From a virus (Duplodnaviria; Caudoviricetes): 46,698 nt of DNA. Each line of letters starts with the position of its first letter. The stretch's first letter is position 1. Both the position numbers and the translations under genes were made by a program. The notes beneath the pieces are model-generated. The model was not told where the DNA came from. It saw only the letters and a program-made list of their open reading frames with translations, and did no database searches. The stretch covers positions 1 to 46,698 of the IMG/VR virus record IMGVR_UViG_3300028399_000010. One strand, written 5' to 3'. Positions 1-24,517 of this stretch are shown one piece after another.

Positions 1-96
1 GGCTTTTCAGGAGGTTACGGACTGGGAACATACCAATGGTGTATTAAATGTTATGAGATTTATGATTTTATGCCTGAACCTGAGCAAGGGGAGTGA
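1..96 (+). CDS. 5'-truncated small phage protein (GYGLG...CxxC)
   Basis: Open frame from base 1, GFSGGYGLGTYQWCIKCYEIYDFMPEPEQGE*; stop TGA 94-96 directly before next ATG at 99. Confidence 0.55.
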   Translation, partial: GFSGGYGLGTYQWCIKCYEIYDFMPEPEQGE

Positions 97-98
97 TT

Positions 99-269
99 AT
101 GGAAAAAAATAAACAACGCAAACCAATATTTCGGTGCCCTGGTGGACATGATGCAAGCAATTTCGTGGATGGCGTGTTTGGGAAACGTGCACCATATTGC
201 AAACTGTGCAGAGAGTTAACACCCAACGGGAAAACAATAATCAAGTATGGATATTTGATTTACAATTAG
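99..269 (+). CDS. small Cys/His (Zn-binding-like) hypothetical protein, 56 aa, not in ORF track
   Basis: GGGGAG SD then ATG 99; MEKNKQRKPIFRCPGGH...YCKLC...YN*. Confidence 0.6.
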   Translation: MEKNKQRKPIFRCPGGHDASNFVDGVFGKRAPYCKLCRELTPNGKTIIKYGYLIYN

Positions 270-283
270 AGAGAAGGAATAAT

Positions 284-535
284 ATGTGCCAACAATGTCT
301 TAATTTGATAGAGAAATACTATCCAGATTTACCAGAAGAACATTATGCGACCTTACTAATGAATGCAACAGCATTTCCTTTTTGTCCACCAGAATATTTG
401 GAAAAACAATTACAAGAATTATGTGAGAATACTGATGGTACATTAAAAGGAGCAATAAAATATGCGAATGAGACACTTGAAAATGAAATGCACCAGTTCA
501 ATTTAAGTCATAAAGAAAGTGAGAAGGAGATATAA
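284..535 (+). CDS. hypothetical phage protein (MCQQC start)
   Basis: Within track ORF 197..535; ATG 284 preceded by GAAGGA SD and avoids overlap with 99..269. Confidence 0.7.
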   Translation: MCQQCLNLIEKYYPDLPEEHYATLLMNATAFPFCPPEYLEKQLQELCENTDGTLKGAIKYANETLENEMHQFNLSHKESEKEI

Positions 536-537
536 GC

Positions 538-789
538 ATGAAAAATCCACAAGCATTCCCAAGACCAGTAAGTGTTTTAGGAGACGTCAAACAATTTAAT
601 TATGAAATTTATCCTGAATTAGATGGTATGACATTACTTGATTGGTTTGCTGGGCAGGCATTAGCGGGCAATTTAGCAGCAGCACCACACCCTGATTTTA
701 TGAGTGATGGTATATGTGCAGCACGTGCTTATAACCTTGCTGAAGCAATGTTAAAAGAACGGCAAAAGAGATTGGAACCAAAATCATGA
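538..789 (+). CDS. conserved small phage early protein (AFP...GMTLxDWFAGQAL...AYxxAxAMLxER family)
   Basis: AAGGAG SD; motif pattern widespread in phage early regions. Confidence 0.8.
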   Translation: MKNPQAFPRPVSVLGDVKQFNYEIYPELDGMTLLDWFAGQALAGNLAAAPHPDFMSDGICAARAYNLAEAMLKERQKRLEPKS

Positions 790-1052
790 ACGACTTAATT
801 CAACGTCTCAAGGATTTGGCCACATGCAAACATGACGATCACAGCGTTGCTGGGGAAGCGGCTGAGATGTTGGAGTGGTATGACATCAAGAAAAAACTAC
901 CAGGAGTTGGAATGGAGTTTCTGGCACTGTATGAAGATAGGTCTGTTGAACATCTCCGCAGGGTTGGTAAAGATGTTTATTTTAATGTTAACACTTCAAA
1001 TGAAACAAACATAAACTGGGTAATATATTGGAAAAGAATATATTTTCCGTAA
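786..1052 (+). CDS. hypothetical protein, DUF551/Ead-like C-terminal half
   Basis: ATGA overlap with upstream gene; WYDIKKKLP...VIYW pattern. Confidence 0.65.
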   Translation: MNDLIQRLKDLATCKHDDHSVAGEAAEMLEWYDIKKKLPGVGMEFLALYEDRSVEHLRRVGKDVYFNVNTSNETNINWVIYWKRIYFP

Positions 1053-1080
1053 ACAACACAGGAGGAAAAAATGAAAAGAA

Positions 1081-1183
1081 TTGCAGGGCATTGTCCGCGA
1101 AATGGGACGGGCAGGGGTGCTCGATATGAAGATTACGGCTGGTGTGTTTCCCATACTGTTCACCAGTACGGAATGCCCTGCAA
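1081..1183 (+). ncRNA. candidate structured RNA element 1
   Basis: 12-bp closing stem TTGCAGGGCATT(1081-1092)/AATGCCCTGCAA(1172-1183), inner GTCC/GGAC, GGGCA/TGCTC and CTGGTG/CACCAG stems; GC-rich island. Confidence 0.5.
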
Positions 1184-1195
1184 AATGTTAATCAA

Positions 1196-1335
1196 GCAGG
1201 GCGGTGGCGGATTCATTAAGACACAGGAGGTTCCCCCTTCTCCAAGGCTCCGGCCTGGACTGAGGCTAAGTATACTATGCCCGAGAGAAATATCAGAATG
1301 TTGGAGATTATAGTGTCAAATCCTGCCCGCCCTGC
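1196..1335 (+). ncRNA. candidate structured, tRNA-scaffold-like RNA element 2
   Basis: GCAGGGCGG/CCGCCCTGC closing stem, GGATT/AATCC, GACAC/GTGTC, TCTCCAA/TTGGAGA; 5' GGCGGTGGCGGA and 3' TCAAATCCTGCCCGCCC resemble tRNA D- and T-arm ends. Confidence 0.5.
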
Positions 1336-1363
1336 AAAAATTAATAAAATGAAGGGGCAACAA

Positions 1364-1603
1364 ATGAAGAATAAAAAGAAAATTGATTGGGAGGCCATAG
1401 CTGAATATCTTGAATGTACGTGCAATACCATTACTCAATCTATAGATTATTTTGGCCTTAATTGCGATCCAGAAACGGTTCAAGACAAAATGTTAGATTT
1501 TAATATTGAAGTTTGTCCTGGTTGTGGATGGTGGGTGGAATCTGGCGAATTAGCCGATGATAATGGTAATATTGTTGAATGCTATGAATGCCGTTTCAAA
1601 TAA
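1364..1603 (+). CDS. small Zn-ribbon protein
   Basis: CPGCGWW and CYEC motifs; GAAGGGG SD before ATG 1364 (in frame with track ORF 1277..1603). Confidence 0.7.
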   Translation: MKNKKKIDWEAIAEYLECTCNTITQSIDYFGLNCDPETVQDKMLDFNIEVCPGCGWWVESGELADDNGNIVECYECRFK

Positions 1604-1649
1604 ACAATTACAGACATGGCGGGAAACGTGTCTAACTACTTGAACCATT

Positions 1650-2108
1650 GTGAGACAAAAGATGCAAATAGAGGGATATAAAATAACGAATCGTCTTATA
1701 CCAACTATACAATTAGTATTTGTAGTTCTGTTTTTGGTGATTGTTATAGTGAAAATATATGGAGGTAAGCAATCAGACAGCATAGATGTGTTTTCACCTG
1801 ACAGTTTATCGTTCAATGTGATTTATAGCGACAAATCGACATATTTACTCCCGATTAATTGGGGGGATGAATATATCGTTGTGGTTTTGAATATGCTATA
1901 TAAGCAATACAAAAATGCAAGTTACAACGATAGTAGCCAAACGACTAAGCATGTCGGGGATTATAGATTTTGCACATATCAGTCTACAGAATGGGAAATG
2001 ACAGATTGTGGTAATCCGTCGCATTATAACCAAAAAATCTGGACACACAAAAAACCAACTTTTCAAGGATTTATGGAATGGTTACAAGCACTGGAGGAAC
2101 AAAAATGA
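1650..2108 (+). CDS. membrane-anchored hypothetical protein
   Basis: Hydrophobic LVFVVLFLVIVIV; C-terminal HKKPTFQGFMEWL; start uncertain. Confidence 0.65.
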   Translation: MRQKMQIEGYKITNRLIPTIQLVFVVLFLVIVIVKIYGGKQSDSIDVFSPDSLSFNVIYSDKSTYLLPINWGDEYIVVVLNMLYKQYKNASYNDSSQTTKHVGDYRFCTYQSTEWEMTDCGNPSHYNQKIWTHKKPTFQGFMEWLQALEEQK

Positions 2109-7588: not shown

Positions 7589-7766
7589 AAAAGAACATAT
7601 TAAATGTGATATGTGTTTGCAATACCCAAAAGGATTTACAGCACAGTACTATGACTTCACTCCAGCACTTAGTAAAATCAAATTAATAATATGTGAAAAT
7701 TGTAAAAAGAGAGAGATGGGTGAAAATAAACCCACGATAAAGAATAAGGCCATGACAAAGGGATAA
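7560..7766 (+). CDS. small Zn-ribbon protein
   Basis: CDMC and CENC motifs; start uncertain within track ORF 7503..7766. Confidence 0.55.
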   Translation: MYSTVIKRNKKEHIKCDMCLQYPKGFTAQYYDFTPALSKIKLIICENCKKREMGENKPTIKNKAMTKG

Positions 7767-7841
7767 TTCTATACGGGTTCTAATATTAAAAACTAAAAAA
7801 AGTCTTATATAACAAATATATTAGGCTTATATAATTAGGAG

Positions 7842-8345: not shown

Positions 8346-8347
8346 AA

Positions 8348-8674
8348 ATGAGCAAATCTAAATTTGAGTTTGTTGATAATATTGATAATAGCATTATAAT
8401 GTTTTCAAAGAATAGGGCTGAAACTCTCAGCAATTTAATGTTTACCGGAAAAGGTAAAGATTCAGAAGTTGCCAAATCAAGATATTCACAGAAACTTGAG
8501 GTAGTTATCCGTGAACTTATACTTGAATGGGAAAAGTCAAAAGCCATTTCGGTCCAACAACTAAGAAGTGAGGTTATGCAATTAAACACTGAAAGTTTAG
8601 AATCATTGTATAATGATATTAGTACTGAAATAATTAGGAGAAATAATGAAACGAGCGGTCAGGATAAAAAGTAG
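8348..8674 (+). CDS. hypothetical protein
   Basis: GGAG SD; helical composition. Confidence 0.65.
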   Translation: MSKSKFEFVDNIDNSIIMFSKNRAETLSNLMFTGKGKDSEVAKSRYSQKLEVVIRELILEWEKSKAISVQQLRSEVMQLNTESLESLYNDISTEIIRRNNETSGQDKK

Positions 8675-8714
8675 GTTGGCGTTGGCTGTGAACCAAAAAC
8701 GATCGCTCGTTTCA
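8647..8714 (+). other. 14-bp inverted repeat enclosing 40 nt
   Basis: TGAAACGAGCGGTC(8647-8660)/GATCGCTCGTTTCA(8701-8714), one G-U pair. Confidence 0.6.
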
Positions 8715-8736
8715 AAAATAATAGGAGAACAGCGAA

Positions 8737-8970
8737 ATGAATCATAAAAGACTTAAAATACTTGGGAAAAATAAGACTGAACTTACAGCTATAAACATTG
8801 GAAAAGTTATACTGTTTTCATATGGAGTTCCAGTTGCTTGCTATGATATTTATAATGGGAAAGAATATAAAACAGATAAGTTTTTTAGCAAGACAACTCA
8901 AAAACATATCAGCCAATGGATTCCAAATGCTGAAACAAAGCCACAGTCATACTTTGACAACCTACTGTAA
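8737..8970 (+). CDS. conserved small phage protein (SYxxPVA...SxTTxKHI family)
   Basis: FSYGVPVA and FSKTTQKHISQW; AGGAG SD. Confidence 0.8.
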   Translation: MNHKRLKILGKNKTELTAINIGKVILFSYGVPVACYDIYNGKEYKTDKFFSKTTQKHISQWIPNAETKPQSYFDNLL

Positions 8971-8984
8971 TCAAGGAATAAAAA

Positions 8985-9350
8985 ATGAAACTAATTGACA
9001 ATGATGGAAATAGACTAATTCTTGGTGATGATGGTATTTATTTAAAACTGAAGGGTGATCCAAGCACCAGAAAAATACTATCATTCACAGGTGGTAAAAT
9101 AGTTAAATATGTTAAAAAGAAAAACATATTTAAACCAAAGAATGGAAAGGAGATGATTGGTTTCAACTATTACTCATTAAAACTCCTAAAAGAAAGAACC
9201 AAACTCAGAACAATATATGTTAGATATGGAAGAACAATGAGGTCAATTAATATTGATGAGTTATTGGAGCATGGAAAATTTTTACATTTCCTAAAATCAG
9301 GATTTGAACTGCAAACATTTTATATGTTAGAAAATATGAATGAAGTATAA
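8985..9350 (+). CDS. basic hypothetical protein
   Basis: AAGGA SD; Lys-rich. Confidence 0.7.
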   Translation: MKLIDNDGNRLILGDDGIYLKLKGDPSTRKILSFTGGKIVKYVKKKNIFKPKNGKEMIGFNYYSLKLLKERTKLRTIYVRYGRTMRSINIDELLEHGKFLHFLKSGFELQTFYMLENMNEV

Positions 9351-9383
9351 TTATTTTAATAAACAAATGAAAGGGCAAAACAA

Positions 9384-9707
9384 ATGGAAGAGAAAAAGAC
9401 GAAGTGGCAAGCAGTAAAAGAAGGAGGGCTTAGTGGTGGTGACGGTGGGCAAATTGAAAAATCACTCACAAAAGCAGAAAAAATAGACAGAGCTATAAAC
9501 AGACTTGTATATGAGGTAGAAGCTCTTTCGGTCGCAATCAATGAAATACATGCAGGTGCGAACTCCACTGGTATGAAAGCTGAAACAAAGAAGGTTAAAT
9601 CAAAACAATCACTTCTTGAAGTTCTTGATTCAACACCAGAAAGAATAGAAATTATCAGTAAAAGACTTGTTGAATTAAGAAGTCAATTAGTTGAATTGTT
9701 ATTCTAA
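9384..9707 (+). CDS. coiled-coil hypothetical protein
   Basis: Heptad-like helices. Confidence 0.7.
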   Translation: MEEKKTKWQAVKEGGLSGGDGGQIEKSLTKAEKIDRAINRLVYEVEALSVAINEIHAGANSTGMKAETKKVKSKQSLLEVLDSTPERIEIISKRLVELRSQLVELLF

Positions 9708-9732
9708 ATATTATAGAAAGGAGTTATGACTT

Positions 9733-9843
9733 ATGGATATTCCAGTTAAACAACTACTGAAAATACTAAGCTCAATAAGAAAAGCAATATTCCATATGAA
9801 AATAGCTGAAAAAGAAATAAATAAGAGAATAAATAAAAGCTGA
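9733..9843 (+). CDS. 36-aa basic helical peptide
   Basis: AAAGGAG upstream; MDIPVKQLL...NKS*; stop abuts the convergent stop at 9844. Confidence 0.4.
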   Translation: MDIPVKQLLKILSSIRKAIFHMKIAEKEINKRINKS

Positions 9844-12800
9844 CTACTCCTTATCACCAAAAAAATCAGAAACTCTTAGCATATATGAAGCAAATAATGA
9901 CAAATAGACAGGAATAAGCAGTCTCATAGTGTCCTCAGCAGTCCTTCTTATAGCATTTTCTGCTTTTTTCCTGTCTTTGTCATCATCGCCAGCAAATAAT
10001 GAGAATAATAACCACCTTATTGCTATATTAACTGGAAACGATAATACAGGGCTTTCTATTCCCCTCATTGCTGTAGCTGGAAGTCTTCCACCAAACGACC
10101 TGAGAATATAATCAACTTTACTTAAATTTCCAACTAAGGCAGACATAATAGTTCCAAGTCCCCTGCTTAGTATCATTCTTGCCATAGATAATGCTTCATA
10201 ATCAAGTTTCTCACCAACTAAATTTTCCTTTGCTGGATTTAGAACATCTGTAGTAGCCTTTAATAACCTTGTCATCATATCTGTATAAGTATCACTTCCA
10301 GCCATAAATGCTTGTCTTACATTTCTTCCAAATACAAATGATTGTTTTAATGGATAATCTTTAAATTGTCTTATAGTTTGTCCAAAACCTTTTCCCGCTT
10401 CAGGGGCATGAACTTGAGCCATATTAAACTGGTGAGATTCAACGCTTAATCTTCCGGCAAATGCCGCATCTGGGCTTAAAAATCTATCTTTAATACCTGG
10501 AACTATTGTACTTTTATCATTTTTCTTGCTTCCAAGATTTCCCATTGCATCTGCAGCAAGAACACCCATTATATAATCAATTTTTCTATTCTGACTCTCA
10601 GTCCCAACAAATGTAAACCACTTATTAGGGTTCTCACCAAGCCCAGCACCATTAAAGAACCATGTTAATTTCCATGATATAAACTTTTTTAACTGTGTGT
10701 CTTTTACTTTTCCAACAATCTTGATATAATTCTTTTTTATAAACTCAGTATTATTACTATTCTTATCTGCTTTTGCTAAATTAATCCAACCTTCTCTTAT
10801 TTCTTTCCTTAGCTCAATCAAATACTTAATTTCTTCTTCTTCTTTCATGCTCCTTGATTTTTTCAACCGTCTCTGTAACATTCTGTCAATAAATCCATCA
10901 ATTAATGGATGCCCTTTTTCAATAAACATCTTCTTATCCATTAGAAGCAGTTTACCATAATCAAGTAAATTGTTTGGGTGTGGAACAGGCAATGGCACTT
11001 TTGGAAATTGATAAAATAAGGCATCATTCCAATGTAAATCAGAAACAGTTGTTAATATAATATCATTTAAAAATGTTAATTGGTTTGTAGCTCCACCATA
11101 ATCAGCTATATATGTCCATTTATCAGCATCTGGCCCTTCAATTCTTTCAATAGCTTGTTTATACATATTTAACCCAAATATAATAATTGGATTTGCAACT
11201 TGTCCCCTATTTGTAAGTGCTGGCCATGAACCAAGTGTTAGTGTGGTTATAAATCCTTTTGCATGTTTAAATAAAGTGTCAACACTTTCTGCTGTCCATC
11301 TATCTGTTCCAAAAATTTGGTTCATTCTCTTTGCTATATTTGGTGAACCAACATTAAAACTCAATGGCCCAAGTGTAAACTTAGCATCCAAATATGGGTC
11401 TCCCATAGCAGACTTAACTTGGTTTGTCATATATCTTATTTGTTCAAATGGTGGTTTTTCCTTTCCATATATTTCTTGAATTTCAGTTATAGCCTGAACA
11501 GTATCAGCAAGTAATCTATTTTTTAATAATCTGTTAAAAAGAATATCAAGATATGCCATTTTTGCTTCATTATCTTTTCTTCTTAGCATATCATTTGTAA
11601 AAGGTTTTCTATGTTTATACATTAATGGTCTTTGCTCAAGCACAGTTCTATTTCCAGAAAATATTTCCTGTGTATCCATGAAGTCTTGCCGTGCTTTTTC
11701 GAGTTCCATAGCTTCTTTTTCACTTAGTTCTTCAAACTCAAGTTTACTATCAATTTCATTAATAGAATCAAGAACAAACTTGTCATATACTTTATCAAGA
11801 AACATTGACGGAAAATAGTTCTCACTTTTCTTTGACATAAACATAGCTAATGAACTTACTTCATTAGTTTCTTCATCATAAGACATCCTATTCTCAACAC
11901 CAAGAGTTTGCAAATCTCTGAATATATTTTCAGCGGCAATCTTACGCCTCTCATATAAATCAGCATCAAGTTCACCTTTTTCAACTAAATCATCTAATCC
12001 CTTCATCATTGTTGAATGTGCTTTTTTAAACCATTTAACAATATCAGCATTAGTTGAATTTGTCCACTTGACTGAAACATCCCACAATTCGTCAAATATT
12101 GATCGCATCTCATGTAATGCTTCCCATATATTATTATAACCATCATCAGTTATTTCAGTTTCAACCAAAGAATCCGGTGGTTGTTTTTTCATATATTCAA
12201 AACCAACGTATTCTTTATCTGTTGAATCCTTTATTGGTTGCATAAATTTATTTAGTTTAGGCCCAAACTTTTCCTGGTCTGATGCCCTATAAAATCCGGG
12301 TTGAAATGCTTTAACAGTTCTTGCTACTCCAGTTTCATCTCTTATAACTTCTGTTAAATCATTTATGTTTAACATTACATCAGAATCTCTTGTATTTGGA
12401 TTATAGTTATTAAATGGGTCAAAATAATAAACTTTATTACCAGCAGTATCCTCATGACCAACTATATAAGTATTATAAACTTCACCAATATCATCTTCGC
12501 CCTGTTTAACCATTACATAGTTTATATTATACTCACCAACTCTCTTTGTATGGATATATGGAGACTTTTGGTCTAATTTACCTTTAACAGCGCTTGCCTT
12601 TAGCATCCATTTTATTTTTCTTATATCCTCAGCACTTGCTTTCCTAACATCAACTGGCATTAACTTTCTTACCTCACCATGCCCAAGCTCATCAATTAAG
12701 TGTGTAGTCCCGCTTTCAAATATTTTGTCACGTATATAATCTCTTGAACTCTTACCACGAGGAAACCAAAAATCATTGCCATTAACAATCATTTTAGTGC

Positions 12801-13560
12801 CAGTTCTATCGTCCTCAACAATATAACCATCTATAACTGCTTTATTTTGTTTATTGTATATAACTTCATGTAATGTAACATCTATAGGCTCACCACGAAA
12901 ACCACCTTTTTTACGTTTTCCTTTTATCTTTAATCCACTTATTGGTTTTAAAATAAGGTCATTTAAATCAATTATTCCTGACTTTTCAAGCGAATCAGTG
13001 TATGCTCGTACATTTCTATTAATAATTCTGAAGCGTTCTCTATACTGTAAAACGAACTGCTGTATTCTATCATTAAGTAAACCAGCTTCTCTGACTATTT
13101 TTGATACTTTCCCTGTTTTATCAAGTCTGAATGAAACATAATCAGGATAAGCCTGGCTTTTCATTGTCTTGTTCATCTCTTTATTTTTCAAGTATATAGC
13201 ATCTTTAGTCAGTTTAACTAAAGCCTTCATAGTTCTTGTTCCAACAAACGCAAAGTCAATAACCTTACCACCAATTTTCTTTGGTAAATAATCAGCAAAA
13301 GCGTCAATAATATCCTCAGGGTCTACAGTCATAAATCCAAGTGTAAACCTATTTGCAACATCAATTGTATGGTCAAGTAATAGATTATACAATTCCTTAT
13401 GATATTTATAAACATCCTTGTAATTATCATCCTTTATATCTTCAGGATTGAGTGGCTTACCAATGAAATTTTCAATGGCAGTTTTAGCCCTTAGTTCATA
13501 GTCATTGTTATACAACTTGTATAATTCGTTTACCGAATCTGATCCTGGTTCACACTTCAT
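9844..13560 (-). CDS. large internal virion (ejection/cargo) protein, 1238 aa
   Basis: Last gene of the late region; helical, hydrophobic C-terminal segments; single Cys at residue 3. Confidence 0.75.
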   Translation of the reverse strand: MKCEPGSDSVNELYKLYNNDYELRAKTAIENFIGKPLNPEDIKDDNYKDVYKYHKELYNLLLDHTIDVANRFTLGFMTVDPEDIIDAFADYLPKKIGGKVIDFAFVGTRTMKALVKLTKDAIYLKNKEMNKTMKSQAYPDYVSFRLDKTGKVSKIVREAGLLNDRIQQFVLQYRERFRIINRNVRAYTDSLEKSGIIDLNDLILKPISGLKIKGKRKKGGFRGEPIDVTLHEVIYNKQNKAVIDGYIVEDDRTGTKMIVNGNDFWFPRGKSSRDYIRDKIFESGTTHLIDELGHGEVRKLMPVDVRKASAEDIRKIKWMLKASAVKGKLDQKSPYIHTKRVGEYNINYVMVKQGEDDIGEVYNTYIVGHEDTAGNKVYYFDPFNNYNPNTRDSDVMLNINDLTEVIRDETGVARTVKAFQPGFYRASDQEKFGPKLNKFMQPIKDSTDKEYVGFEYMKKQPPDSLVETEITDDGYNNIWEALHEMRSIFDELWDVSVKWTNSTNADIVKWFKKAHSTMMKGLDDLVEKGELDADLYERRKIAAENIFRDLQTLGVENRMSYDEETNEVSSLAMFMSKKSENYFPSMFLDKVYDKFVLDSINEIDSKLEFEELSEKEAMELEKARQDFMDTQEIFSGNRTVLEQRPLMYKHRKPFTNDMLRRKDNEAKMAYLDILFNRLLKNRLLADTVQAITEIQEIYGKEKPPFEQIRYMTNQVKSAMGDPYLDAKFTLGPLSFNVGSPNIAKRMNQIFGTDRWTAESVDTLFKHAKGFITTLTLGSWPALTNRGQVANPIIIFGLNMYKQAIERIEGPDADKWTYIADYGGATNQLTFLNDIILTTVSDLHWNDALFYQFPKVPLPVPHPNNLLDYGKLLLMDKKMFIEKGHPLIDGFIDRMLQRRLKKSRSMKEEEEIKYLIELRKEIREGWINLAKADKNSNNTEFIKKNYIKIVGKVKDTQLKKFISWKLTWFFNGAGLGENPNKWFTFVGTESQNRKIDYIMGVLAADAMGNLGSKKNDKSTIVPGIKDRFLSPDAAFAGRLSVESHQFNMAQVHAPEAGKGFGQTIRQFKDYPLKQSFVFGRNVRQAFMAGSDTYTDMMTRLLKATTDVLNPAKENLVGEKLDYEALSMARMILSRGLGTIMSALVGNLSKVDYILRSFGGRLPATAMRGIESPVLSFPVNIAIRWLLFSLFAGDDDKDRKKAENAIRRTAEDTMRLLIPVYLSLFASYMLRVSDFFGDKE

Positions 13561-16500
13561 TTATTTACATGATTCCTTTAAATTTTCAAATAATTTACTT
13601 ACATTAGCAACATGCTCAGATGGTTTAATTTCATTCATATTCTGTGTAAGTTCATTATGCCATAGTTTCAAATAACCTTTCAAAACACCACCATCCATTA
13701 ACTGGAATGGAAGTATCCTGCCAACGTTTTTTATTCTAAACCGCTCACCCTCTCTTTTTATTCCCGTCAGAAAAAACAACGAAGCAAGAGACCTTTCGTT
13801 CTTGCTCATACTTTTAAACTCATCATAATATTTTTCTACAAACTTCTGAAAACTTTCATTATATTCATAAGTAACATATTTATTATCTTCATCTTTAATA
13901 AATTGTGTTTCATTACTATAAATTTTGTAAAACTCATTACCAACTTTATTTGCAAAATTATAGGCATTTCTAACTTCTTCTTTTGTAAAACCATCTATAT
14001 TTGCATCACCAATAATTATGCCATCTCTACTCATATTTTTAACAATTTTATCAATAACGTTGTAATGAGCATTCCTCTCAAATTTAGATTCTGCTATTAT
14101 TAGCGGAACAATTTTACTCCTGATAATATTTTTAATAATAGCCCTTGTTCTTAATTTTTTATGTTCTTCACTTTCTATTATATTTCCAGCCTCATCTTTC
14201 TTAATCTTAGAATAATACTTATCAAGCTCAGCATCAAGCCTTTTATTATATCTCTCCATCTGCACCGCTGGTTGTTTTAATAAATGTTCAGTAACACCAA
14301 CTTTACCATTAACAGAAATTTCTTCTATCGAAGAATTAAGATATGGATACTTTCTAATAATAATATCACGTATCATTTTGCCTTGTTCTTTTGCTGGTAA
14401 ACTTAACAAATTATTAAGCTCATAACTCTTATGAAATATTTCCTGAAAAGTCATTTGCCTTCCATCCATACGACCATTTTTAAAGTTTGAATCATTAAAC
14501 GTTGAAACAATGGCAGATAATGCAATCGCAGTTGGCTTATCAAAACCTTCGATATTTTCACCATCAACTTTAAACATTTTCCTCAATATAAATGTTTTAT
14601 TATAACCAATAGCACCAAGAAATCCATGTTTAGGATTATCTGCGGCCATTTGCAAGTATATTGACAAGCTATTTTCAAATGTAGTTGCTAAATATGCTTC
14701 ATCCTCATTAAGAAAATCTTGGTATGTTTCTATTTTGCTTCCATCTCCACGAATAATAAAATCACCTTCAACATTAAACTTATTAAACTTTTCTTCTGTC
14801 AAACCTTTTTTATCAAGTCTCAATGGTATTGAAACAATCTCATTTGGATCTCTAACTGTATATTTTTTACCATCTATAACAACTGAAAAATCTTTCATGA
14901 ATAATTTATTCGATACCATCTTAGCAATAATTATTTGAGCAAGTGCACCATCTGACCTTGCATTATTGGCCATTATTCTTGCAACATCATCCCTGGATGA
15001 TGATGAGGTACCTTCCATTACATCTGGATATATATCTAAATCACCAGATGAACTTCTATCTCTTGACCTGAATTCGTCACTATTTATCAATGCTTTAATA
15101 GCATTCGCAAAACCCTTATCACTAAAAATCTCTATATTTGCTGAGTCCCCATCAAAATCTGCTTGTAATGGGCCTTTTACATCATCATTATGTAAAAATA
15201 TAACATCACCATGACCTCTTTCAACAAACCCTTTTAACTTATATACACCAACTGCAGATGCTTTTTCAATAGGCGGTTTTGATAGCAATACTTCAAAATT
15301 ATTATACTTCAGCCAGTTATTTAGTGAATCAATATTCCAGTCACTATTACGATTCAAACCCATCTTCTTTAACACTGCATTTACAGCAGCAACATTATCA
15401 ATACTAACAGCAAATTCTTTTGGTTTTAGACTAATATCAACCATTGGCTTTAAGTATAGCTTAGTTCCATTTCCTGGATTCCTAAGTTTAAACATACCAT
15501 CAATAATAAATGAATTTGCAAGGTATGGAAGAATTTGGACTAAATACTGTCTATTAATTAAACCTTCACCATCTTTAACTAATCCAGTGATATATTGCAG
15601 CTCAGTTGGAAGTTTTCCTTCAACTGGTTCTCTGTAAATTAAATCTCTCAAAACACTTGGAAGGTCATTTGCCTCAAGTATTTTATCCATATACTTTTTT
15701 GTAACAATATTAATATGTTTCATAACAGCTCTTTTAGCTGTTTTAAATAAATCCTGGTTAATTTTTGGACTCCAAACCTGTTCCCACCATGCTAATGGAT
15801 GAGATGGATTTGTTTTCGCTTTTTCACCAGGAGTGATTATAACCTTTGTAGCATTTTCTGGTAACATGTGTATTTTATAAAAATCAGTAAACTTTCCAGA
15901 AACCTGTTTTGCTTCATTTGTACTTATTAAAGAATCAAACTCACCTATAACTTTTCCATTCTTGTCAAGATGTTGAAAATAGGTTCTTCCATCTTCATAC
16001 TCAGCAACCCTTGCAAATGGGGTATTCTCACCTTTTTTATAAAATTCCATTCCTAATAATGGTGTCATATCTAACATCTTAACACCAATATAATCCTTCA
16101 AATCATCTGATAAATATTCTTGAGCTGTTTTGATTACAGAAAGCTCTGTACCATCATCTGTTTCTGGTGTTCTCCCAATAGCTTCTTGAATGTCAAACAT
16201 TCTCTTACTTCCAGTTATTTTCCAGCCATCAAATAAATTATATTCACCTACTTCATATGATACATTTTTATCTCTAACCTTTACTATAACATCATCGGCA
16301 TTAATAAGCATTATAAATTCTGGGCCAGAACCTATTGGAACAAAGCCTTCAGTTAAACTTATTCTCAATCTATTAAAAGTATCCTGAACTGACTTTTCTC
16401 TCATCAAGTAATCTAAACCTTTAATCTTTTTCATTACCTGATGTTTACCATAAATCTGATTCCAAACCTTTGGATTATAACTTTCAATAACCTCACCATC

Positions 16501-19500
16501 ATTAATAAAATTCTTATAATGTTCCTCAGTTATTGTTTTCCCAATTTCACTTTTTAAGTTTTGAACAATCTCATCTTTTGTCATATTCAGAACATCTTTT
16601 GGGACACCGCTTATTATTAGTTTTGAATCTCCAGCCTTACCAGTTGAACCAAGAAAAAATAACAAGCTATTGTTTCCATCATAGCTATCAAGAAACATTC
16701 TGTCAAGCTTCTTAATGAAAGCAGATGAAAATTCAATAGATGCTTTTCTATAAAAATCACGTTTCTTATTATATTTAACAATATCCTTAGCAAGCAAATA
16801 AATTACATTTGTAAAACCTCTATCCTCAATAAAATTGGTTGACTTAGTATCTGGCAACTTTCTACCAGTTGCAAGTTCTGTGCCATCATTAACAGAAAGT
16901 CTTGGATTGACAACTTTATTCCATCCAATAGCATCAAAAACAAGATTTAAATATAGTCTCCCTTCATTTCCAATTTTCTTTGCTACTGGTATTTTATAAC
17001 GTTGTTTTACAAAAAACTCTTTAGTTTTATTAACAAACTGTGTACTATTCTCAAGGTATTTTGCATTTGGAAAATTCTTGTTAATATAATCAATATACTC
17101 AGCTTTGAATGAATCATAATTTGTATTTTTCTTTGCTATATTAACAAGTTCTGAATGTTGAGTTGGTGTAACATAGGAATTAAATATATTACTAAAATAG
17201 TTATCTAAGTAAACAGTCCCATCCGCTGTATTCTCAACTCCAAGTCCATCTTCTTCAATACCATCATCATTTGTGACTTGTTCGGTTCTTTGGTATACTA
17301 TTTCTACATCATTTGTTGTTGATATTTTAGTTTCAAGTTTTGAATACTTACCTTTAAAAAAGTTTTCAGCAAGAACTTGAGTTGCAGCATCCTTATCACC
17401 AAATAATGTTTTTACCTTTAACCAGAATTGTTTAAGCCATTGTGATAACCAATTCTTAGCTTTCTTATCCTGGATTCTATTTGCATAATACTCACCAACA
17501 TATTGTGTCAGCTTTTCCATGCTTCCAAATCTTTCAACAGCCATTTTGACAATAGACTGGTCACTAATAGAATTTGCTATAACATGAAAATACTCATGAG
17601 GTGCAGTATCAACTCTACCATCAGTAGTTGACCATTTTACTGTATTCCCAATGGCAACACCAACTGATTCAACACCATCAGTTTCTATAACACCTCTAAC
17701 CTTTTCTGTGTTTACAAATGGGTATTGTTCTTTAAGTCTGGTCTCAATTTTTACAGCAAGCTCTGGTTCTTCAGATATTAATGGTTGTTTACTTTGCCCC
17801 TCAATTTGAAAATTAACATCTAAATTTGAAATATCACCGATAACATTCCTTGCTTCTTTAGTTTTTTGCTCAACTGAAGTCTGTTTACCTTCACCCTTTA
17901 AAGACTTACTTGTGGTTGTGACTAAATTTTTTACCGCAAGCAAAACAGATTCAGATATATTTTTACCGTCTTCATCATTTACCTTTGAAAGTTCATCAAG
18001 AAATGAAGAATTTGTTATTGCCCCAGCAACAAACTCATTATCACTTTTAAAATAGTAATAATTTTTCTTGATATTTTTCATTGCTGTTATTCTAAGGCTT
18101 GAAATCTTATGCCTGAAAGCTAACTCTTTATTTGTTGGGGTTGCATTACTGAATGCGCCCTCTGTTATGATATGCGAAATTTCATGCAAGAATGTTTCAA
18201 CCTGCTTTTTTTGACTTACATTATTATTTAAAAAGACACCATGATCAAGTCCATAAACATAAGAACCGGCCATTTCTTTTCCATTAACTATAACTTTGTC
18301 AGCAAAATAAACTTTCGTACTTTTTGTATAATCATTCAAGACATTATTTAGATATGAAGCAATTGGAGTATTAATATCTTTTAACACAGTCCCAATAGTA
18401 CTTTCTTTCGTTATATTTTTATACTTAAGCCCAGCTTCATATGCGGTTTCTTTCAAAGCATCTGTAAGTTTTGCCACTTGCTCAGCTGGTTTAAACTCAA
18501 ATCTCATTAATGAAATTTTAGTTTTTTTACCATTAATAGTTATAGACCTATCACCATACTTAACAAATCCCTGCTTTTCCCAAAATCCTTCAGAACCAGG
18601 ATTAGCTTCAACTTCTATAAACTTTCTACCTTGAGCTTCTTTTAATCTCTTAAAAGCATTAACAATTTTTGTTCCTATTCCTTGTTTCTGCAACTCACTT
18701 GAAATTGATATTGTACCAATTCTATTTTCATAACCCTTCTTCGTTGGGGCACGTTCTATTTTAACTCCATCAATCTTTGACAACTCATCAATTTCAGACT
18801 GAGCTTGTATAATTACCTTTGCTTTTTCTGCATTACTTAGCTTGCTTATATTACTTACAGTAATTTTATTTTGTTCTATAGTTTGCTCAGGTAATTGCTC
18901 CTGTGAAACTATCTTAACAATTTTACCAGCTTTTAAATCTACCCACTTCTGTAAATCTTCAACAGATTGACCAATAAACTTTTTAAGAATAGGAGCAGCA
19001 CCATCAATCTTTCCATTTTTAACATTGACTTTAGCATTTATACTACCAATTTGTACTTGGTATGTTTCTTTTGCTTGTTTTTTTATAATCTCATCTTTTT
19101 CTTGAGTGCTCTGAACAGGCTTAAATTCAAGCTCACTAACATCTTCCCTTTTCTGCCTCAAAGTCTCAACATAATCGAGGTCAGGCTCAATATCATAATC
19201 AAGCACAGCCTCAGCTTCCATTGCATCAAGTTCTTCTTGTGGTAACTCAATATCTGGTTCATATACAGGTGTTTCTTCACTATAATATGGATTAAATTCA
19301 GGTACATAATCGCTATAACCAGGGTCTGATTTTACATTTGATAATGCTTCTGCTGCATCATAAGAATCTATAATTTTAACAAGGTCATCAATACTATTAA
19401 CCTCAATATTCCTCATTCCCTTTTTGAATGCAGCAATTTCAATATCTTTTAGAACTTTCTTTGCCGCCTCTTCATCAGTTGCTTCAAGCTCTTTTATATT

Positions 19501-20979
19501 ATCAACAATCTCAAGCCTTGTTGATGGGTTTGTAAGAGCATTGAACATCTTTTCACCTGGAGATTCTCCAGTTGCCCTAATACCACCAGAACCACCTTGG
19601 CCTTGTTTTCCATCCCTACCTTTACTATTAATATCCTTATATAAGGCTAATATATTATTTATATCACCCTTTTGTTCTAAAATATTAGTAACTACCTTAG
19701 CTACATTTTTTCGTTCGATATCACCGGCTTTTACTCTGTCCAACTCAGTCTTCAGGGAACTAATCCAATTATCAAGTTTCTTCCTTCTGCTATACTCAAC
19801 TGGAGTTCCAATAGTTGCACCTGCAAAACCAAATCCTAAGCCAGAAACTAACCCAGCATGTAAGCTCATCCTTGCTTCATCATCCCAGTACTTTGCATCT
19901 ATAACATCACCAAGATTTTTCATAGCTTCATCTGGGTAAGCACCATATTTATTTAACATTGACCAATTTACAACTTGCTCAGTCATATACTGAGTATATT
20001 CCTGCAAGCCCTCAACCAAACCTTGAGATAACGCCCCACCAGTTTTTTTACCAACAGAAGCCATAAATGCTTTAAATCCACCTGCTTTAACAACGTCCTT
20101 CGTCAAACCATTTGTAATGTTTTTTAATAAAGCCTTTTTTGAAAGATTTTTTAAACCTGTCCATTTCAAAAAATATTCAAAGCTAAGAGTTTCCTCTAAT
20201 GCTGAAAGACCGCCATATATAATAGAACCAACTGCAGCAACATTTGTAGCATCTTCTTTTGATAAGCCTTGCTCACGTGCAGTTCTATACATGTCAGCAC
20301 CATTGTTTGAACTCTCAAGTAAAAATGTACCAGCCAACACAGCAAGTGAACTACCGCCAGTTACTATTGAGGCTGCAGACATAGTTAATAAGGATGGTAA
20401 TGCACTAATAAAACTTCTTGCTGCAATATCTGAATGATACCAGTTTGCATCACCAGTAAAAAATGCAGTTGGGTCATACCAAGCTGCACCAGTCCTTCTA
20501 AACTTTACAGGTTCATCAGCATTCCACCTTATAAGAGCAGCAATTTCAGGGTCTTTTTGAAGCTCATTTAAATATTCATTCCTCCATATACTTACATTTT
20601 CTCTTAAATTTAAAGCTGATTCTCTAACCGATTTTTCAAAATCAGAAACCTTAATATTTCCAGCCTCATCAAGAACACCAACATTTGCTGGTCTCTGTGT
20701 TACAAATGCTCCAATTTGAGACAACCAATCTGGAATAGCGCTTCCAATTGTTTTAATGTTATATGTAAACTGCTTTAAATATGGAGTACCAACTGCCTTT
20801 GGGTCTTTTGATAAATACCACTTCTTCTCAAGAAGATATGGATTTCTCCTTGCGGCTATATTGAAAACTACTTCATCAGGTAATCCACTATACCTTGTTG
20901 GGTCTTCATCAAGCAACTTCTTTCTGTAAAGCCCAACAAATTTATTATAGTCATACTGGTCATTGACAGTATTTGGCAT
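13561..20979 (-). CDS. virion polyvalent protein: ejection N-terminus, GNAT, two zincin peptidases, single-chain two-barrel RNA polymerase
   Basis: DFDGD 15145-15159; VLLSKPP 15271-15291; LQMAADNPK; FDGWKIT/STNEAK; HEISH 18172-18186; HEYFH 17584-17598; QKQGIGT...FWEKQGF. Confidence 0.88.
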   Translation of the reverse strand: MPNTVNDQYDYNKFVGLYRKKLLDEDPTRYSGLPDEVVFNIAARRNPYLLEKKWYLSKDPKAVGTPYLKQFTYNIKTIGSAIPDWLSQIGAFVTQRPANVGVLDEAGNIKVSDFEKSVRESALNLRENVSIWRNEYLNELQKDPEIAALIRWNADEPVKFRRTGAAWYDPTAFFTGDANWYHSDIAARSFISALPSLLTMSAASIVTGGSSLAVLAGTFLLESSNNGADMYRTAREQGLSKEDATNVAAVGSIIYGGLSALEETLSFEYFLKWTGLKNLSKKALLKNITNGLTKDVVKAGGFKAFMASVGKKTGGALSQGLVEGLQEYTQYMTEQVVNWSMLNKYGAYPDEAMKNLGDVIDAKYWDDEARMSLHAGLVSGLGFGFAGATIGTPVEYSRRKKLDNWISSLKTELDRVKAGDIERKNVAKVVTNILEQKGDINNILALYKDINSKGRDGKQGQGGSGGIRATGESPGEKMFNALTNPSTRLEIVDNIKELEATDEEAAKKVLKDIEIAAFKKGMRNIEVNSIDDLVKIIDSYDAAEALSNVKSDPGYSDYVPEFNPYYSEETPVYEPDIELPQEELDAMEAEAVLDYDIEPDLDYVETLRQKREDVSELEFKPVQSTQEKDEIIKKQAKETYQVQIGSINAKVNVKNGKIDGAAPILKKFIGQSVEDLQKWVDLKAGKIVKIVSQEQLPEQTIEQNKITVSNISKLSNAEKAKVIIQAQSEIDELSKIDGVKIERAPTKKGYENRIGTISISSELQKQGIGTKIVNAFKRLKEAQGRKFIEVEANPGSEGFWEKQGFVKYGDRSITINGKKTKISLMRFEFKPAEQVAKLTDALKETAYEAGLKYKNITKESTIGTVLKDINTPIASYLNNVLNDYTKSTKVYFADKVIVNGKEMAGSYVYGLDHGVFLNNNVSQKKQVETFLHEISHIITEGAFSNATPTNKELAFRHKISSLRITAMKNIKKNYYYFKSDNEFVAGAITNSSFLDELSKVNDEDGKNISESVLLAVKNLVTTTSKSLKGEGKQTSVEQKTKEARNVIGDISNLDVNFQIEGQSKQPLISEEPELAVKIETRLKEQYPFVNTEKVRGVIETDGVESVGVAIGNTVKWSTTDGRVDTAPHEYFHVIANSISDQSIVKMAVERFGSMEKLTQYVGEYYANRIQDKKAKNWLSQWLKQFWLKVKTLFGDKDAATQVLAENFFKGKYSKLETKISTTNDVEIVYQRTEQVTNDDGIEEDGLGVENTADGTVYLDNYFSNIFNSYVTPTQHSELVNIAKKNTNYDSFKAEYIDYINKNFPNAKYLENSTQFVNKTKEFFVKQRYKIPVAKKIGNEGRLYLNLVFDAIGWNKVVNPRLSVNDGTELATGRKLPDTKSTNFIEDRGFTNVIYLLAKDIVKYNKKRDFYRKASIEFSSAFIKKLDRMFLDSYDGNNSLLFFLGSTGKAGDSKLIISGVPKDVLNMTKDEIVQNLKSEIGKTITEEHYKNFINDGEVIESYNPKVWNQIYGKHQVMKKIKGLDYLMREKSVQDTFNRLRISLTEGFVPIGSGPEFIMLINADDVIVKVRDKNVSYEVGEYNLFDGWKITGSKRMFDIQEAIGRTPETDDGTELSVIKTAQEYLSDDLKDYIGVKMLDMTPLLGMEFYKKGENTPFARVAEYEDGRTYFQHLDKNGKVIGEFDSLISTNEAKQVSGKFTDFYKIHMLPENATKVIITPGEKAKTNPSHPLAWWEQVWSPKINQDLFKTAKRAVMKHINIVTKKYMDKILEANDLPSVLRDLIYREPVEGKLPTELQYITGLVKDGEGLINRQYLVQILPYLANSFIIDGMFKLRNPGNGTKLYLKPMVDISLKPKEFAVSIDNVAAVNAVLKKMGLNRNSDWNIDSLNNWLKYNNFEVLLSKPPIEKASAVGVYKLKGFVERGHGDVIFLHNDDVKGPLQADFDGDSANIEIFSDKGFANAIKALINSDEFRSRDRSSSGDLDIYPDVMEGTSSSSRDDVARIMANNARSDGALAQIIIAKMVSNKLFMKDFSVVIDGKKYTVRDPNEIVSIPLRLDKKGLTEEKFNKFNVEGDFIIRGDGSKIETYQDFLNEDEAYLATTFENSLSIYLQMAADNPKHGFLGAIGYNKTFILRKMFKVDGENIEGFDKPTAIALSAIVSTFNDSNFKNGRMDGRQMTFQEIFHKSYELNNLLSLPAKEQGKMIRDIIIRKYPYLNSSIEEISVNGKVGVTEHLLKQPAVQMERYNKRLDAELDKYYSKIKKDEAGNIIESEEHKKLRTRAIIKNIIRSKIVPLIIAESKFERNAHYNVIDKIVKNMSRDGIIIGDANIDGFTKEEVRNAYNFANKVGNEFYKIYSNETQFIKDEDNKYVTYEYNESFQKFVEKYYDEFKSMSKNERSLASLFFLTGIKREGERFRIKNVGRILPFQLMDGGVLKGYLKLWHNELTQNMNEIKPSEHVANVSKLFENLKESCK

Positions 20980-20981: not shown

Positions 20982-22385
20982 TTACCTTACTCTAAGTCCC
21001 ATTATATTACTGACAGGAACGTTAAGTGTGTCATTGTAAAGACTCAATGTATCACTATTTGATTTTGTTGAAGTTGGTTGTTTCTCAACTTGAGATAGTG
21101 TTCCAGATGTAGTTTCAATCTCACCAAACTCACCAAGCCTATTCTTTAAGGTTTTATCCAGCTTTCTATATAAGTCTATAGCATCAATAAATGCTTTGTA
21201 CCTATTCTTTTCTTGGTCATCAGAAATAAACTCAAAAGTCTTTTCCATATCAAGCTTACTCACCTTGTCTGAATTTTCAGCCCACATATCAGCAAACTTT
21301 ATTAAAGCATCATTAAGTGAATATGCCTTAACATTACCATCCTCATCATAAACAGTCTTGGTTCTTCCAGTCTTTTCAGCTTCTTCAATAATATCTGCAA
21401 ATTTCTTTAACTCTGATGGAATTGAGAAATCATGTCTATCTTTCTGTATTCTATACATTGTATAAGCAGTCTGTTTCATGACTTCCTTGATATTATCAAC
21501 AGTTCCAGTATCACCTCTCAAAACCTTAGCGGATACTCTTGGAATCTTACTGCTGTAACCACCCAAATCCATAGTATTATTAAGTTTAGTAACTAAATTA
21601 CTTATTACTTCATTTTCAGACTTAGTCTCAATTTTCTTTTCAGCAGCAATAGCTTTGTCAATACGTCTTGACTCAGCTTTTTCATTTAAAACATCCTGCG
21701 CTTTTATACTTGGTATTCCTTCTATAATTCCTAATGCCCTCCTGACATCAATATCAGCAACATCAGATGCTTCCTTATACAAAGTCTTCTCAATTGGGCC
21801 AATATTCCTACCAAATTGAACACCTGGCTTATTTTTATCAACATCTTTCTGTGAAATTCTACCAAGAACAAATAACTCATCAAGAGTTTTTCCAACCATT
21901 TGACCTGCCCTTGCTAACATTTGCTGGTCATATATTCCAGATTCATCATATTCCTTCTGAAACCTTTTTAATGTATTCTGTATAACATCATAAGATTCTT
22001 TAAAATCCCCACCCTTTGAAGCTACAGCCTTAACAGTATTCTCTAACTCATTCATTGATTGTTCAAGTCTTTTCCTGTTTTCAAGCCTTTGACTTAAAAC
22101 TGACCTTGTAACATCAATAAGTGGTTTTACATATTCTGAACCCTCAGAACTCATACTATCAAATGCTTTCATCATCTCATTCATATCTGAAGATGATGTT
22201 GAGCTATTGAAAAATCTCTGTGATAAATTGTCAAGTGCACGAGCAACATACATATCTTGAACTCTAAGATTTTGCTGTCTATATTGCTGTGCTTGCTCAA
22301 TAATTGAACTTGCAGTCCTTGATAAACTATCAAGTGCTCTTGTTACTGGGTCTTGTTCTATTTGTATTGTTCTTGGAAGTGCCAT
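20982..22385 (-). CDS. internal virion/ejection protein, 467 aa
   Basis: Between pilot-type genes and the giant cargo gene; helical, no Cys. Confidence 0.65.
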   Translation of the reverse strand: MALPRTIQIEQDPVTRALDSLSRTASSIIEQAQQYRQQNLRVQDMYVARALDNLSQRFFNSSTSSSDMNEMMKAFDSMSSEGSEYVKPLIDVTRSVLSQRLENRKRLEQSMNELENTVKAVASKGGDFKESYDVIQNTLKRFQKEYDESGIYDQQMLARAGQMVGKTLDELFVLGRISQKDVDKNKPGVQFGRNIGPIEKTLYKEASDVADIDVRRALGIIEGIPSIKAQDVLNEKAESRRIDKAIAAEKKIETKSENEVISNLVTKLNNTMDLGGYSSKIPRVSAKVLRGDTGTVDNIKEVMKQTAYTMYRIQKDRHDFSIPSELKKFADIIEEAEKTGRTKTVYDEDGNVKAYSLNDALIKFADMWAENSDKVSKLDMEKTFEFISDDQEKNRYKAFIDAIDLYRKLDKTLKNRLGEFGEIETTSGTLSQVEKQPTSTKSNSDTLSLYNDTLNVPVSNIMGLRVR

Positions 22386-23821: not shown

Positions 23822-24517
23822 TTATCCTAATAAATATCCTGAAAAAAATGTATGTAAATTAGTCGCATTACCCAAAATATCAGTTTGCTGTGTCCCACTA
23901 CTCTGGTAAATGTACACTACAGCAGTATCACCTGATTCCATATCAGCAACACAGCATACATGCAGTGAAGTTGGTATGCCAGAACCTGTATCTGCTGAAA
24001 AATTAGGGTCAATACTTGACCAATATGTTCTATTAGATGTTGCAATCTTAAGGCTGTAATAACTTGCTCCAGTATCAATACTTAATAAAGCAACTGTAGT
24101 CTGTAAAAAATACTTACCAGTTACAGGTGCTGTAAAAGTACTTGAACTGAAATTACTTCCAATGTCAAAAACCTCTGTGTCAAAATCAACTGTTACATTT
24201 GTGTTTATTGCGATATTGGTATCACTTGCAGAATTGTAAGCAAGGAATGTTGGTTGTTGTTTTTCTGTTCTTTGCTTTCCAATTTTGACACTCTTTAAAA
24301 CATTAAGATTTTTCTCAACTGTACTATTACCATCACCAGTAGCTTCAAACCAATAGAGTTTGCCATTAATTTTAACATACTGCCTGAGTTTCCTGGATGG
24401 AGACATAACATAACGAATGTCACCTTCAGCCATTCCAGTAACAGATGGGTATAACCTTGAAACACTTTTCCTGTTACCCTTTGAGTTCATCATTACTCTT
24501 GATTTTCTATCTTCCAC
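23822..24517 (-). CDS. C1q/TNF-like domain tail spike or needle protein
   Basis: FLAY...VDFDTEVFDIGSNF...FTAPVTGKYF...MESGD...TFFSGYLL; GTG start overlapping upstream TAG. Confidence 0.85.
   Translation of the reverse strand: MEDRKSRVMMNSKGNRKSVSRLYPSVTGMAEGDIRYVMSPSRKLRQYVKINGKLYWFEATGDGNSTVEKNLNVLKSVKIGKQRTEKQQPTFLAYNSASDTNIAINTNVTVDFDTEVFDIGSNFSSSTFTAPVTGKYFLQTTVALLSIDTGASYYSLKIATSNRTYWSSIDPNFSADTGSGIPTSLHVCCVADMESGDTAVVYIYQSSGTQQTDILGNATNLHTFFSGYLLG

Follow-up and report, generated by a model that had tools for sequence, protein, structure and literature searches.

Virion-borne RNA polymerases (RNAPs) with two double-psi beta-barrels (DPBBs) in a single chain have been demonstrated by experiment so far, in the published accounts available, in the crAss-like phages, as gp66, and in Thermus phage P23-45, where the enzyme is fused to the tape-measure protein. 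gp96 of P23-45 is described in the P23-45 paper as one giant virion protein carrying both a DFDGD motif and a metallopeptidase domain. In coliphage N4, according to PMC5512222, gp50 is a giant, ejected late-gene product which joins a polymerase to an HExxH metallopeptidase and to variable effectors, and a zincin-like peptidase is invariably part of the same chain as the N4 virion polymerase. The available text of that paper (Iyer et al. 2017) names only N4-like modules as the RNAPs of polyvalent proteins, and the terms 'double-psi' and 'DPBB' are absent from it. The subject here is P0001, a 2472-residue protein encoded on the minus strand of a 46,698-base stretch of viral DNA (IMG/VR record IMGVR_UViG_3300028399_000010; Duplodnaviria, Caudoviricetes), referred to in its whole length as the window.

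Residues 1294-2472 of P0001 would form a single-chain two-barrel RNAP whose DxDGD loop binds the catalytic Mg, and the whole protein would be packed into the virion, ejected and used to transcribe the first genes. A probability of about two in three is attached to this reading. Activity as a polymerase is suggested by the predicted structure; virion packaging, ejection and early transcription are suggested by gene position, architecture and analogy. An earlier sequence-only reading, which had taken positions 13561-17000 (residues ~1327-2472 of P0001) for a polymerase of this type, is supported in that interpretation. The parts of the protein are as follows.

13561-20979, minus strand: giant open reading frame (ORF) P0001, 2472 residues, a polyvalent-type protein whose C-terminal half is the predicted two-barrel RNAP.
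19630-20622, minus strand: conserved N-terminal module, residues ~120-450, glycine-rich, with a hydrophobic segment at residues 203-221.
18520-18828, minus strand: GNAT acetyltransferase domain, residues 718-820 (Pfam Acetyltransf_10, E 5.5e-7, 30.1 bits, cut-off 23.6).
18172-18186, minus strand: first HExxH motif, HEISH, residues 932-936, in a variable part; weak PHROG metallo-protease match (phrog_87, E 0.0068, residues 888-939).
17104-17922, minus strand: conserved HExxH (zincin-like) module, residues ~1020-1292, directly upstream of the polymerase.
17584-17598, minus strand: HEYFH, residues 1128-1132, the HExxH of the conserved module.
13564-17100, minus strand: predicted two-barrel RNAP module, residues 1294-2472, from an AlphaFold2 model and structure searches.
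15790-16362, minus strand: first (beta-like) DPBB, barrel A, residues 1540-1730, holding FDGWKIT, GVKM and STNEAK.
15493-15795, minus strand: helical stretch between the barrels, residues ~1729-1829, with helices at model residues 436-536 (~100 residues).
15106-15471, minus strand: second (beta-prime-like) DPBB, barrel B, residues ~1837-1958, holding VLLSKPP and DFDGD.
Residues 1583-1589, minus strand: FDGWKIT.
Residues 1632-1635, minus strand: GVKM.
Residues 1686-1691, minus strand: STNEAK.
15271-15291, minus strand: VLLSKPP, residues 1897-1903.
Residues 1939-1945, minus strand: QADFDGD.
15145-15159, minus strand: DFDGD, residues 1941-1945 (model residues 648-652, within the barrel-B match), the sole D.D.D of P0001.
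14629-14655, minus strand: LQMAADNPK, residues 2109-2117; family form QxAVDxxK.

The motifs on which the sequence-only reading was built are confirmed: all are present, once each in P0001, at the residues and in the order that had been claimed. The AlphaFold2 model of residues 1294-2472, built on a 53-sequence alignment, has a mean predicted local distance difference test score (pLDDT) of 90.1 and a predicted template modelling score (pTM) of 0.87. It contains two DPBBs in one chain, with DFDGD in the second, so that on the evidence of the model P0001 belongs to the two-barrel class. The structural neighbours that had been expected, phi14:2 gp66, QDE-1/RDR2 and beta-prime, were all recovered. 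In a Foldseek search of the PDB the top ranks are held by two-barrel polymerases only, namely QDE-1 (E 1.2e-11, the best), gp66 (6VR4; E 3.3e-10) and RDR2 (E 3.8e-8), followed by P74-26 gp62 and P23-45 gp64 at about E 7e-5 and then by beta-prime and Rpb1-type subunits. VIA-align was run against 48,161 representative chains, the comparison being one of scores and aligned ranges of chains or domains. For the whole module it gave RDR2 at Z 14.2 over 546 residues, gp66 at Z 12.7 over 775 residues (model 1..1153 on gp66 297..1986), QDE-1 at Z 9.9 over 668, P74-26 gp62 at Z 8.9 over 533 (Z 8.9-12.8 and 463-533 residues over its several alignments) and P23-45 gp96 at Z 8.8 over 388.

The two barrels can be followed separately. 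Barrel A modelled alone (pLDDT 89.9) finds gp66 first, at Z 10.8, the root mean square deviation being 3.8 over 140 aligned residues (gp66 897..1367), and gp66 is the only chain of the 48,161 to reach Z>=8; RDR2 (Z 7.6), QDE-1 (Z 6.8) and generic DPBBs (~5) come next, and the beta-like chains score Z 5.2 (PhiKZ, 7ogp_C), 4.5 (AR9, 7s00_C) and 4.1 (Pol I, 4c2m_B). Model residues 538-681 (residues ~1831-1974 of P0001), around barrel B, resemble the beta-prime barrels of AR9, PhiKZ, bacterial, archaeal, plastid and eukaryotic RNAPs at Z 11-13, and residues 544-665 resemble generic DPBBs (Cdc48-N, VAT-N and designed barrels) at Z 8-9.6; the beta-prime alignments run from model residue 538 to 940. 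The helices between the barrels are, judged by position, the likely counterpart of the Connector, which the gp66 preprint places between the barrels of gp66 and QDE-1 and describes as ~140 residues long. Two other polymerase types were considered. A PolD-like two-barrel DNA polymerase is absent among the matches listed by Foldseek and VIA-align and is not thereby excluded. An N4-like (T7-type) polymerase is rejected on fold, there being no T7-type Pfam or PHROG match and none among the structural matches listed.

A phmmer search of 1.84 billion cluster representatives yielded 137 homologues of residues 1294-2472 at E<=1e-3, 99 of them at E<=1e-10 and 68 at E<=1e-30, and most of these relatives are themselves giants of 2000-3900 residues. 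In the phmmer alignment of the hits, 109 stretches cover the catalytic loop: D1941 is kept in 107, D1943 in 108 and D1945 in 107, and position 1944 is G in 97 and I in 3. The alignment averages 30-50% column identity; few of its columns exceed 80%, and the motif residues belong to these. In the region of barrel A these are D1584 (91%), G1585 (94%), K1634 (92%), E1689 (86%), K1691 (99%) and G1695 (99%); further on they include P1903 (99%), T2099 (96%), Q2110 (87%), D2114 (99%) and K2117 (90%). Across 32 barrel-A sequences D1584, G1585, G1602, K1617, K1634, K1691 and G1695 are invariant; the matching of K1617, K1634 and K1691 to lysines of the beta subunit or QDE-1 comes from low-confidence hhalign columns and general knowledge only. 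Both the pair of barrels, in the predicted structure, and the aspartates, either of whose absence the sequence-only reading had named as fatal to its interpretation, are in place.

gp66 of Cellulophaga phage phi14:2 (PDB 6VR4) is likewise a giant single chain with two DPBBs. It has the largest structural overlap with the model of all matches (the 775 residues given above), is the nearest match to barrel A alone, and shares with P0001 an A-x-V-D-N-x-K-type motif downstream. At the level of sequence the two are not recognisable as orthologues, and the link between them is a remote one between profiles. BLASTP of the polymerase against gp66 finds no similarity, and tblastn with gp66 matches 125 phage records whereas the window polymerase matches none of the 50,697 searched. 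A profile-profile hhalign against seven Crassvirales polymerase cores gives a probability of 77.5% and E 1.9e-5 over 205 columns; it sets RxP on YRIP and DxDGD on DFDID, with the catalytic loops in register. The connection to Crassvirales is thus visible only when profiles are used on both sides. In BFVD, three unnamed viral proteins are close to the model (E 1e-44 to 1e-47, TM 0.71-0.77), whilst crAss-like proteins match it distantly (E 1e-10 to 1e-5, TM 0.20-0.40).

The metal loops of the two groups differ at the fourth position, which is I (4) or V (3) in all seven Crassvirales sequences and G in 97 of the 109 stretches of the P0001 family. The gp66 preprint states that a non-glycine residue here holds for all Crassvirales enzymes, all previously studied RNAPs carrying glycine. 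LQMAADNPK had been labelled bridge-helix-like. In a sub-profile hhalign of a region picked post hoc it aligns weakly with the Crassvirales motif FLxAxVDNxKDP (gp66 ~1606-1617; E 7.2e-4, probability 26%, 34 columns), in which A1609, V1611, D1612, K1615, D1616 and P1617 are invariant in 7/7 sequences. The gp66 preprint places the trigger loop at 1598-1636 and the bridge helix at 1529-1559, so the label is probably wrong, the sole sequence-profile counterpart falling in the gp66 trigger loop. The motif itself is real and important, and FLxAxVDNxKDP is its likely counterpart on alignment grounds.

In cr4_1 (NC_055893.1 37160-39955, L014), the gp66-matching part of the giant Suoliviridae gene has six in-frame stops under table 11. 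Stop-codon recoding has reportedly been found in some crAss-like phages and would fit these stops.

Other described enzymes share part of the plan. QDE-1 (2J7N, 7Y7x) and RDR2 (7W84, 7EU1) also have the single-chain two-barrel architecture and carry the canonical glycine in DxDGD, and they give the best Foldseek E and the best VIA-align Z, respectively. Their identity to P0001 in structural alignments is only 10-12%, and they are eukaryotic RNA interference (RNAi) polymerases of a different biological role, whereas P0001 is a giant fusion from a phage late operon. P23-45 gp96 (8H2M, a virion RNAP fused to the tape measure) and gp64 / P74-26 gp62 (8F5M, non-virion) are, like P0001, phage single-chain two-barrel polymerases; searches of PDB sequences and profiles detect no sequence similarity of the P0001 polymerase to the P23-45/P74-26 enzymes. 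In gp96 the polymerase is N-terminal and sits on a siphovirus tape-measure protein, whereas that of P0001 is C-terminal and belongs to a phage whose portal is P22-like and whose capsid is SU10-like. The polymerase of N4 gp50 is a T7-like single-subunit enzyme of unrelated fold, but the design logic is the same as in P0001.

That design lies in the modules upstream of the polymerase. On sequence comparison P0001 is modular, with a conserved N-terminal module, a swappable effector cassette (here GNAT), the conserved HExxH module and the polymerase. Local phmmer searches within the retrieved family find the N-terminal module in ~13 giant members, with W152, G238, Y255 and G256 conserved, and the HExxH module in ~34, with P1127, H1128 and E1129 each kept in 34/34, H1132 in 33/34 and E1155 in 34/35. 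For the latter module the Atlas offers leads only, to the polyvalent-protein domains LPD23 and LPD1 (scores 0.91-0.92). No retrieved family member aligns at the upstream HEISH. The GNAT domain is also matched by the PDB acetyltransferases 1wk4 and 2fiw (E 0.003), and this part of P0001 (residues 692-834) is matched by only one retrieved member, P0083; in the same slot other members carry SF1 helicase, SAP, NADAR, FtsK-gamma, SLOG or DUF7831. Such varied fused effectors fit a delivered polyvalent protein, and P0001 has the features of that class: it is giant and multidomain, with a zincin-like motif module and variable effectors, and it lies in a late context. In phi14:2, by contrast, the zincin is in the neighbouring gene (gp65 carries a zincin domain, according to the gp66 preprint), whilst the zincin-like module of P0001 is fused upstream in the same chain.

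The surroundings of the gene are set out below, MCP standing for the major capsid protein.

Ends at 9844, minus strand: late operon, in order 5' to 3' a putative small terminase, TerL (the large terminase; phrog_38), portal (P22_portal, phrog_156), a 308-residue ORF, MCP (SU10_MCP), adaptor (SU10_adaptor, weak), tail/fibre genes, and the ORFs of 467, 2472 (P0001) and 1238 residues.
20982-22385, minus strand: upstream neighbour, 467 residues, conserved in position only.
9844-13560, minus strand: downstream partner P0002, 1238 residues, with C-terminal hydrophobic segments, one at residues 1172-1190.
1-9707, plus strand: arm facing the late operon, with DUF932, a Dam-type methylase, DnaB and a resolvase; most of its small ORFs are without a family.

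The ATG of P0001 lies 2 nt past the stop of the 467-residue ORF, and its own stop abuts the ATG of P0002. The trio recurs in two relatives from IMG/VR to which CheckV gives 100% completeness, with lengths of 483, 2453 and 1255 residues in a 60.3-kb relative (L004) and 695, 2855 and 1259 residues in a 111-kb relative (L003); the MCPs of both are 40-44% and their TerLs 46-54% identical to those of the window. The 1255-residue protein which follows the polymerase gene in L004 is an end-to-end homologue of P0002 (E 1e-56), and the 1259-residue ORF holds its place in L003. The ORFs of 483 and 695 residues likewise hold the place of the 467-residue ORF, which has no BLASTP similarity to its L004 counterpart. 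P0002 has no Pfam or PHROG match and no BLASTP similarity to phi14:2 gp65. The late operon of phi14:2 likewise ends in a giant block, g067-g066(RNAP)-g065, beside a converging early/replication arm, and the record annotation ties g067, g066 and g065 to tandem mass spectrometry (MS/MS) proteomics of the virion. As a sign that P0001 is present in the virion, this synteny is only suggestive.

From this arrangement a course of events may be proposed. P0001 would be packed in the capsid together with P0002 and ejected with the DNA, perhaps by means of the hydrophobic segments, and the N-terminal module might have a role in packaging or ejection. The giant protein would possibly be cut by its own HExxH module. 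The polymerase would then transcribe the early genes of the opposite-strand left arm before the host polymerase takes over, and the GNAT cassette would act on a host or phage target.

Two of the relatives have peculiarities of their own. The larger, G001 (111,116 bases), contains diverged pairs of MCP (65325-66857 and 5285-6742) and TerL (71905-73470 and 11710-13278) copies ~60 kb apart, and looks like two related genomes joined rather than one 111-kb genome. In the 60.3-kb relative (G002:C1:52590-55226; L010, L013) TerL lies in one 889-residue frame, in which query residues 4-82 and 68-555 match ~970 bases apart; this suggests an intein-like or other in-frame insertion.

A different account of the same fold is that P0001 works as a two-barrel polymerase without being a virion protein, made late or constitutively and acting in the cell, for example on middle or late genes, in the manner of P23-45 gp64 or the PhiKZ/AR9 enzymes. 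The presence of the non-virion P74-26 gp62 and P23-45 gp64 among the structural matches speaks for it, yet the non-virion phage two-barrel enzymes among the matches are small, at ~590 residues, whilst P0001 is a giant fusion with N-terminal and HExxH modules, as in the N4 and crAss-like virion polymerases. Its gene sits in a late structural operon, tightly abutting its neighbours, and an enzyme made late and left unpackaged could not serve early genes. This account appears improbable.

Also improbable is an enzyme working mainly on single-stranded DNA or RNA templates, a QDE-1/RDR-type primer or second-strand synthase which might, for instance, prime phage replication. It would suit the leading scores of RDR2 (Z) and QDE-1 (Foldseek E), as well as the occurrence of DnaB, Dam methylase and resolvase, with no primase or DNA polymerase recognised, among the 46 window ORFs. 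Against this, neither RDR2 nor QDE-1 comes as near to barrel A alone as does gp66, which is DNA-dependent; the position of the gene in the late operon suits delivery rather than replication; and the replication enzymes of the host serve many phages of such a size, so that an absent primase needs no special cause. The Pfam and PHROG scans of those 46 ORFs, P0001 and P0002 included, recognised no other RNAP either.

It is highly improbable that the fold has lost its catalysis and survives as a relic, the scaffold of a polymerase kept in a structural ejection or internal-core protein: P0001 resembles ejection proteins in its size, hydrophobic segments and conserved partner, and the three triad columns have N for Asp in 2, 1 and 2 stretches, but the aspartates, the glycine, the barrel-A lysines and RxP are the best-kept columns across 95-109 stretches that are otherwise 22-34% identical overall (bar one relative at 55%), and a relic would not keep catalytic residues.

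Several results weigh against an injected two-barrel RNAP, the reading preferred here. The best whole-chain Z goes to RDR2, an RNA-dependent polymerase. Foldseek with barrel A alone returns no match at E<=1e-3, gp66 standing 29th at E 0.3, and the family profile, compared by hhalign with gp66 as a single sequence, reaches a probability of 0.5, no match. Searches of PDB sequences with phmmer and with the 53-sequence profile find no polymerase, only GNAT matches and noise. The window protein has K1901 (15277-15279) where 92% of 105 relatives have the R of RxP; the sequence-only reading was right to remark on this K. The early arm shows no excess of sigma-70-like sites (52 in 1-10000 against 51.4 expected), and its repeats are short and imperfect, a repeat search of both genome ends giving no repeated promoter-like element; early transcripts of gp66 also have no common upstream motif, according to the gp66 preprint. 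Terminators in 1-10000 stand at chance level. A seven-sequence consensus that includes the two closest relatives of the window protein also has R at 1901.

As to lineage, the expectation that this phage does not belong with the crAss-like phages holds for the markers tested. The phi14:2 TerL, portal and MCP fall in phrog_6681, phrog_6547 and phrog_11589, the families of the window proteins differ, and BLASTP detects no similarity between the two sets. The contig is 46.7 kb long. The crAss-like whole-genome records listed are of ~89-104 kb, whereas the P0001-type phages are of 47-60 kb. Membership in Crassvirales is rejected on these marker genes and on the size of complete relatives (~60 kb against ~90-105 kb). 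Shine-Dalgarno-like sites precede 27 of 51 starts in the window (background 8%), whereas the phi14:2 control has them at 4 of 48 starts, which matches its 7% background. Bacteroidota make little use of Shine-Dalgarno sites. The host therefore probably lies outside Bacteroidota, though the sites point there only weakly, since this habit of Bacteroidota is a matter of general knowledge. A Bacteroidota-type promoter pattern, likewise taken from general knowledge, was seen once against 3.1 expected. One relative was deposited under a Bacteroidota bin, to which little weight is given.

Some further features of the window may be recorded. A 974-residue ORF (30912-33836, minus strand) contains helical repeats of apolipoprotein type, with a Pfam E of 7e-19 but a score of 68.7 bits, under the cut-off of 90. 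Its product might be an ejection protein or one resembling a tape measure, which leaves the portal, MCP and adaptor families as the only ground for the assignment as a podovirus. A 231-residue ORF (23822-24517, minus strand) carries a C1q-like domain at its C-terminus (Pfam 24.8 bits, cut-off 23.7); the product is probably the receptor-binding tip of a fibre. The contig of 46,698 bases has no terminal repeat, and no tRNA genes were found in it. Its right end carries an A run of ~95 bases within 46481-46698, ahead of which lies AT-rich sequence that holds overlapping palindromes as well as direct repeats (46538-46603); the run may be an artefact of assembly or library preparation, or a physical genome end. 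The element AGAAGTTGA(C/G)A(A/T)AG occurs three times within 225 bases (46191-46416), two of the copies lying inside a 49-nt imperfect direct repeat (46161-46209, 46373-46421).

The virion-type single-chain two-barrel polymerase is already known as a kind, but the family of P0001 has neither a name nor a family model. No Pfam or PHROG model matches the polymerase part of P0001, and the relatives are without a family name in every source examined. Single-protein scans of viral contigs and genome contigs found no relatives, whilst a search with a seven-sequence alignment led to three IMG/VR loci. No description of the family was found in the literature on crAss gp66, P23-45, QDE-1, N4 and polyvalent proteins, a search outside which most subscription journals lay. 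It is a tentative and rather doubtful suggestion that P0001 represents a second, hitherto undescribed lineage of injected two-barrel RNAPs and is the first of it to be recognised, carried in a modular polyvalent protein with a swappable effector cassette by small podovirus-like phages of non-Bacteroidota hosts, and that it could stand nearer than gp66 to the proposed phage ancestor of the eukaryotic RNAi polymerases; this possible nearness is drawn from the canonical DxDGD loop and the best whole-chain scores to RDR2 and QDE-1.

If the preferred reading of P0001 is true, the two-barrel virion polymerase is not specific to crAss-like phages. It would be a recurrent solution deployed on different virion types, represented here by 137 cluster representatives and by phages of 47-60 kb with unrelated capsid and packaging genes. 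The enzyme, of ~1180 residues, confidently modelled and with a canonical active-site loop, would be suited to biochemistry and structure determination. The natural series of fusions, with GNAT, helicase, NADAR, SAP and others, would report on the activities that are delivered together with the first transcription machine. Finally, the family would add an extra branch on which the proposed phage descent of the eukaryotic RNAi polymerases may be tested.

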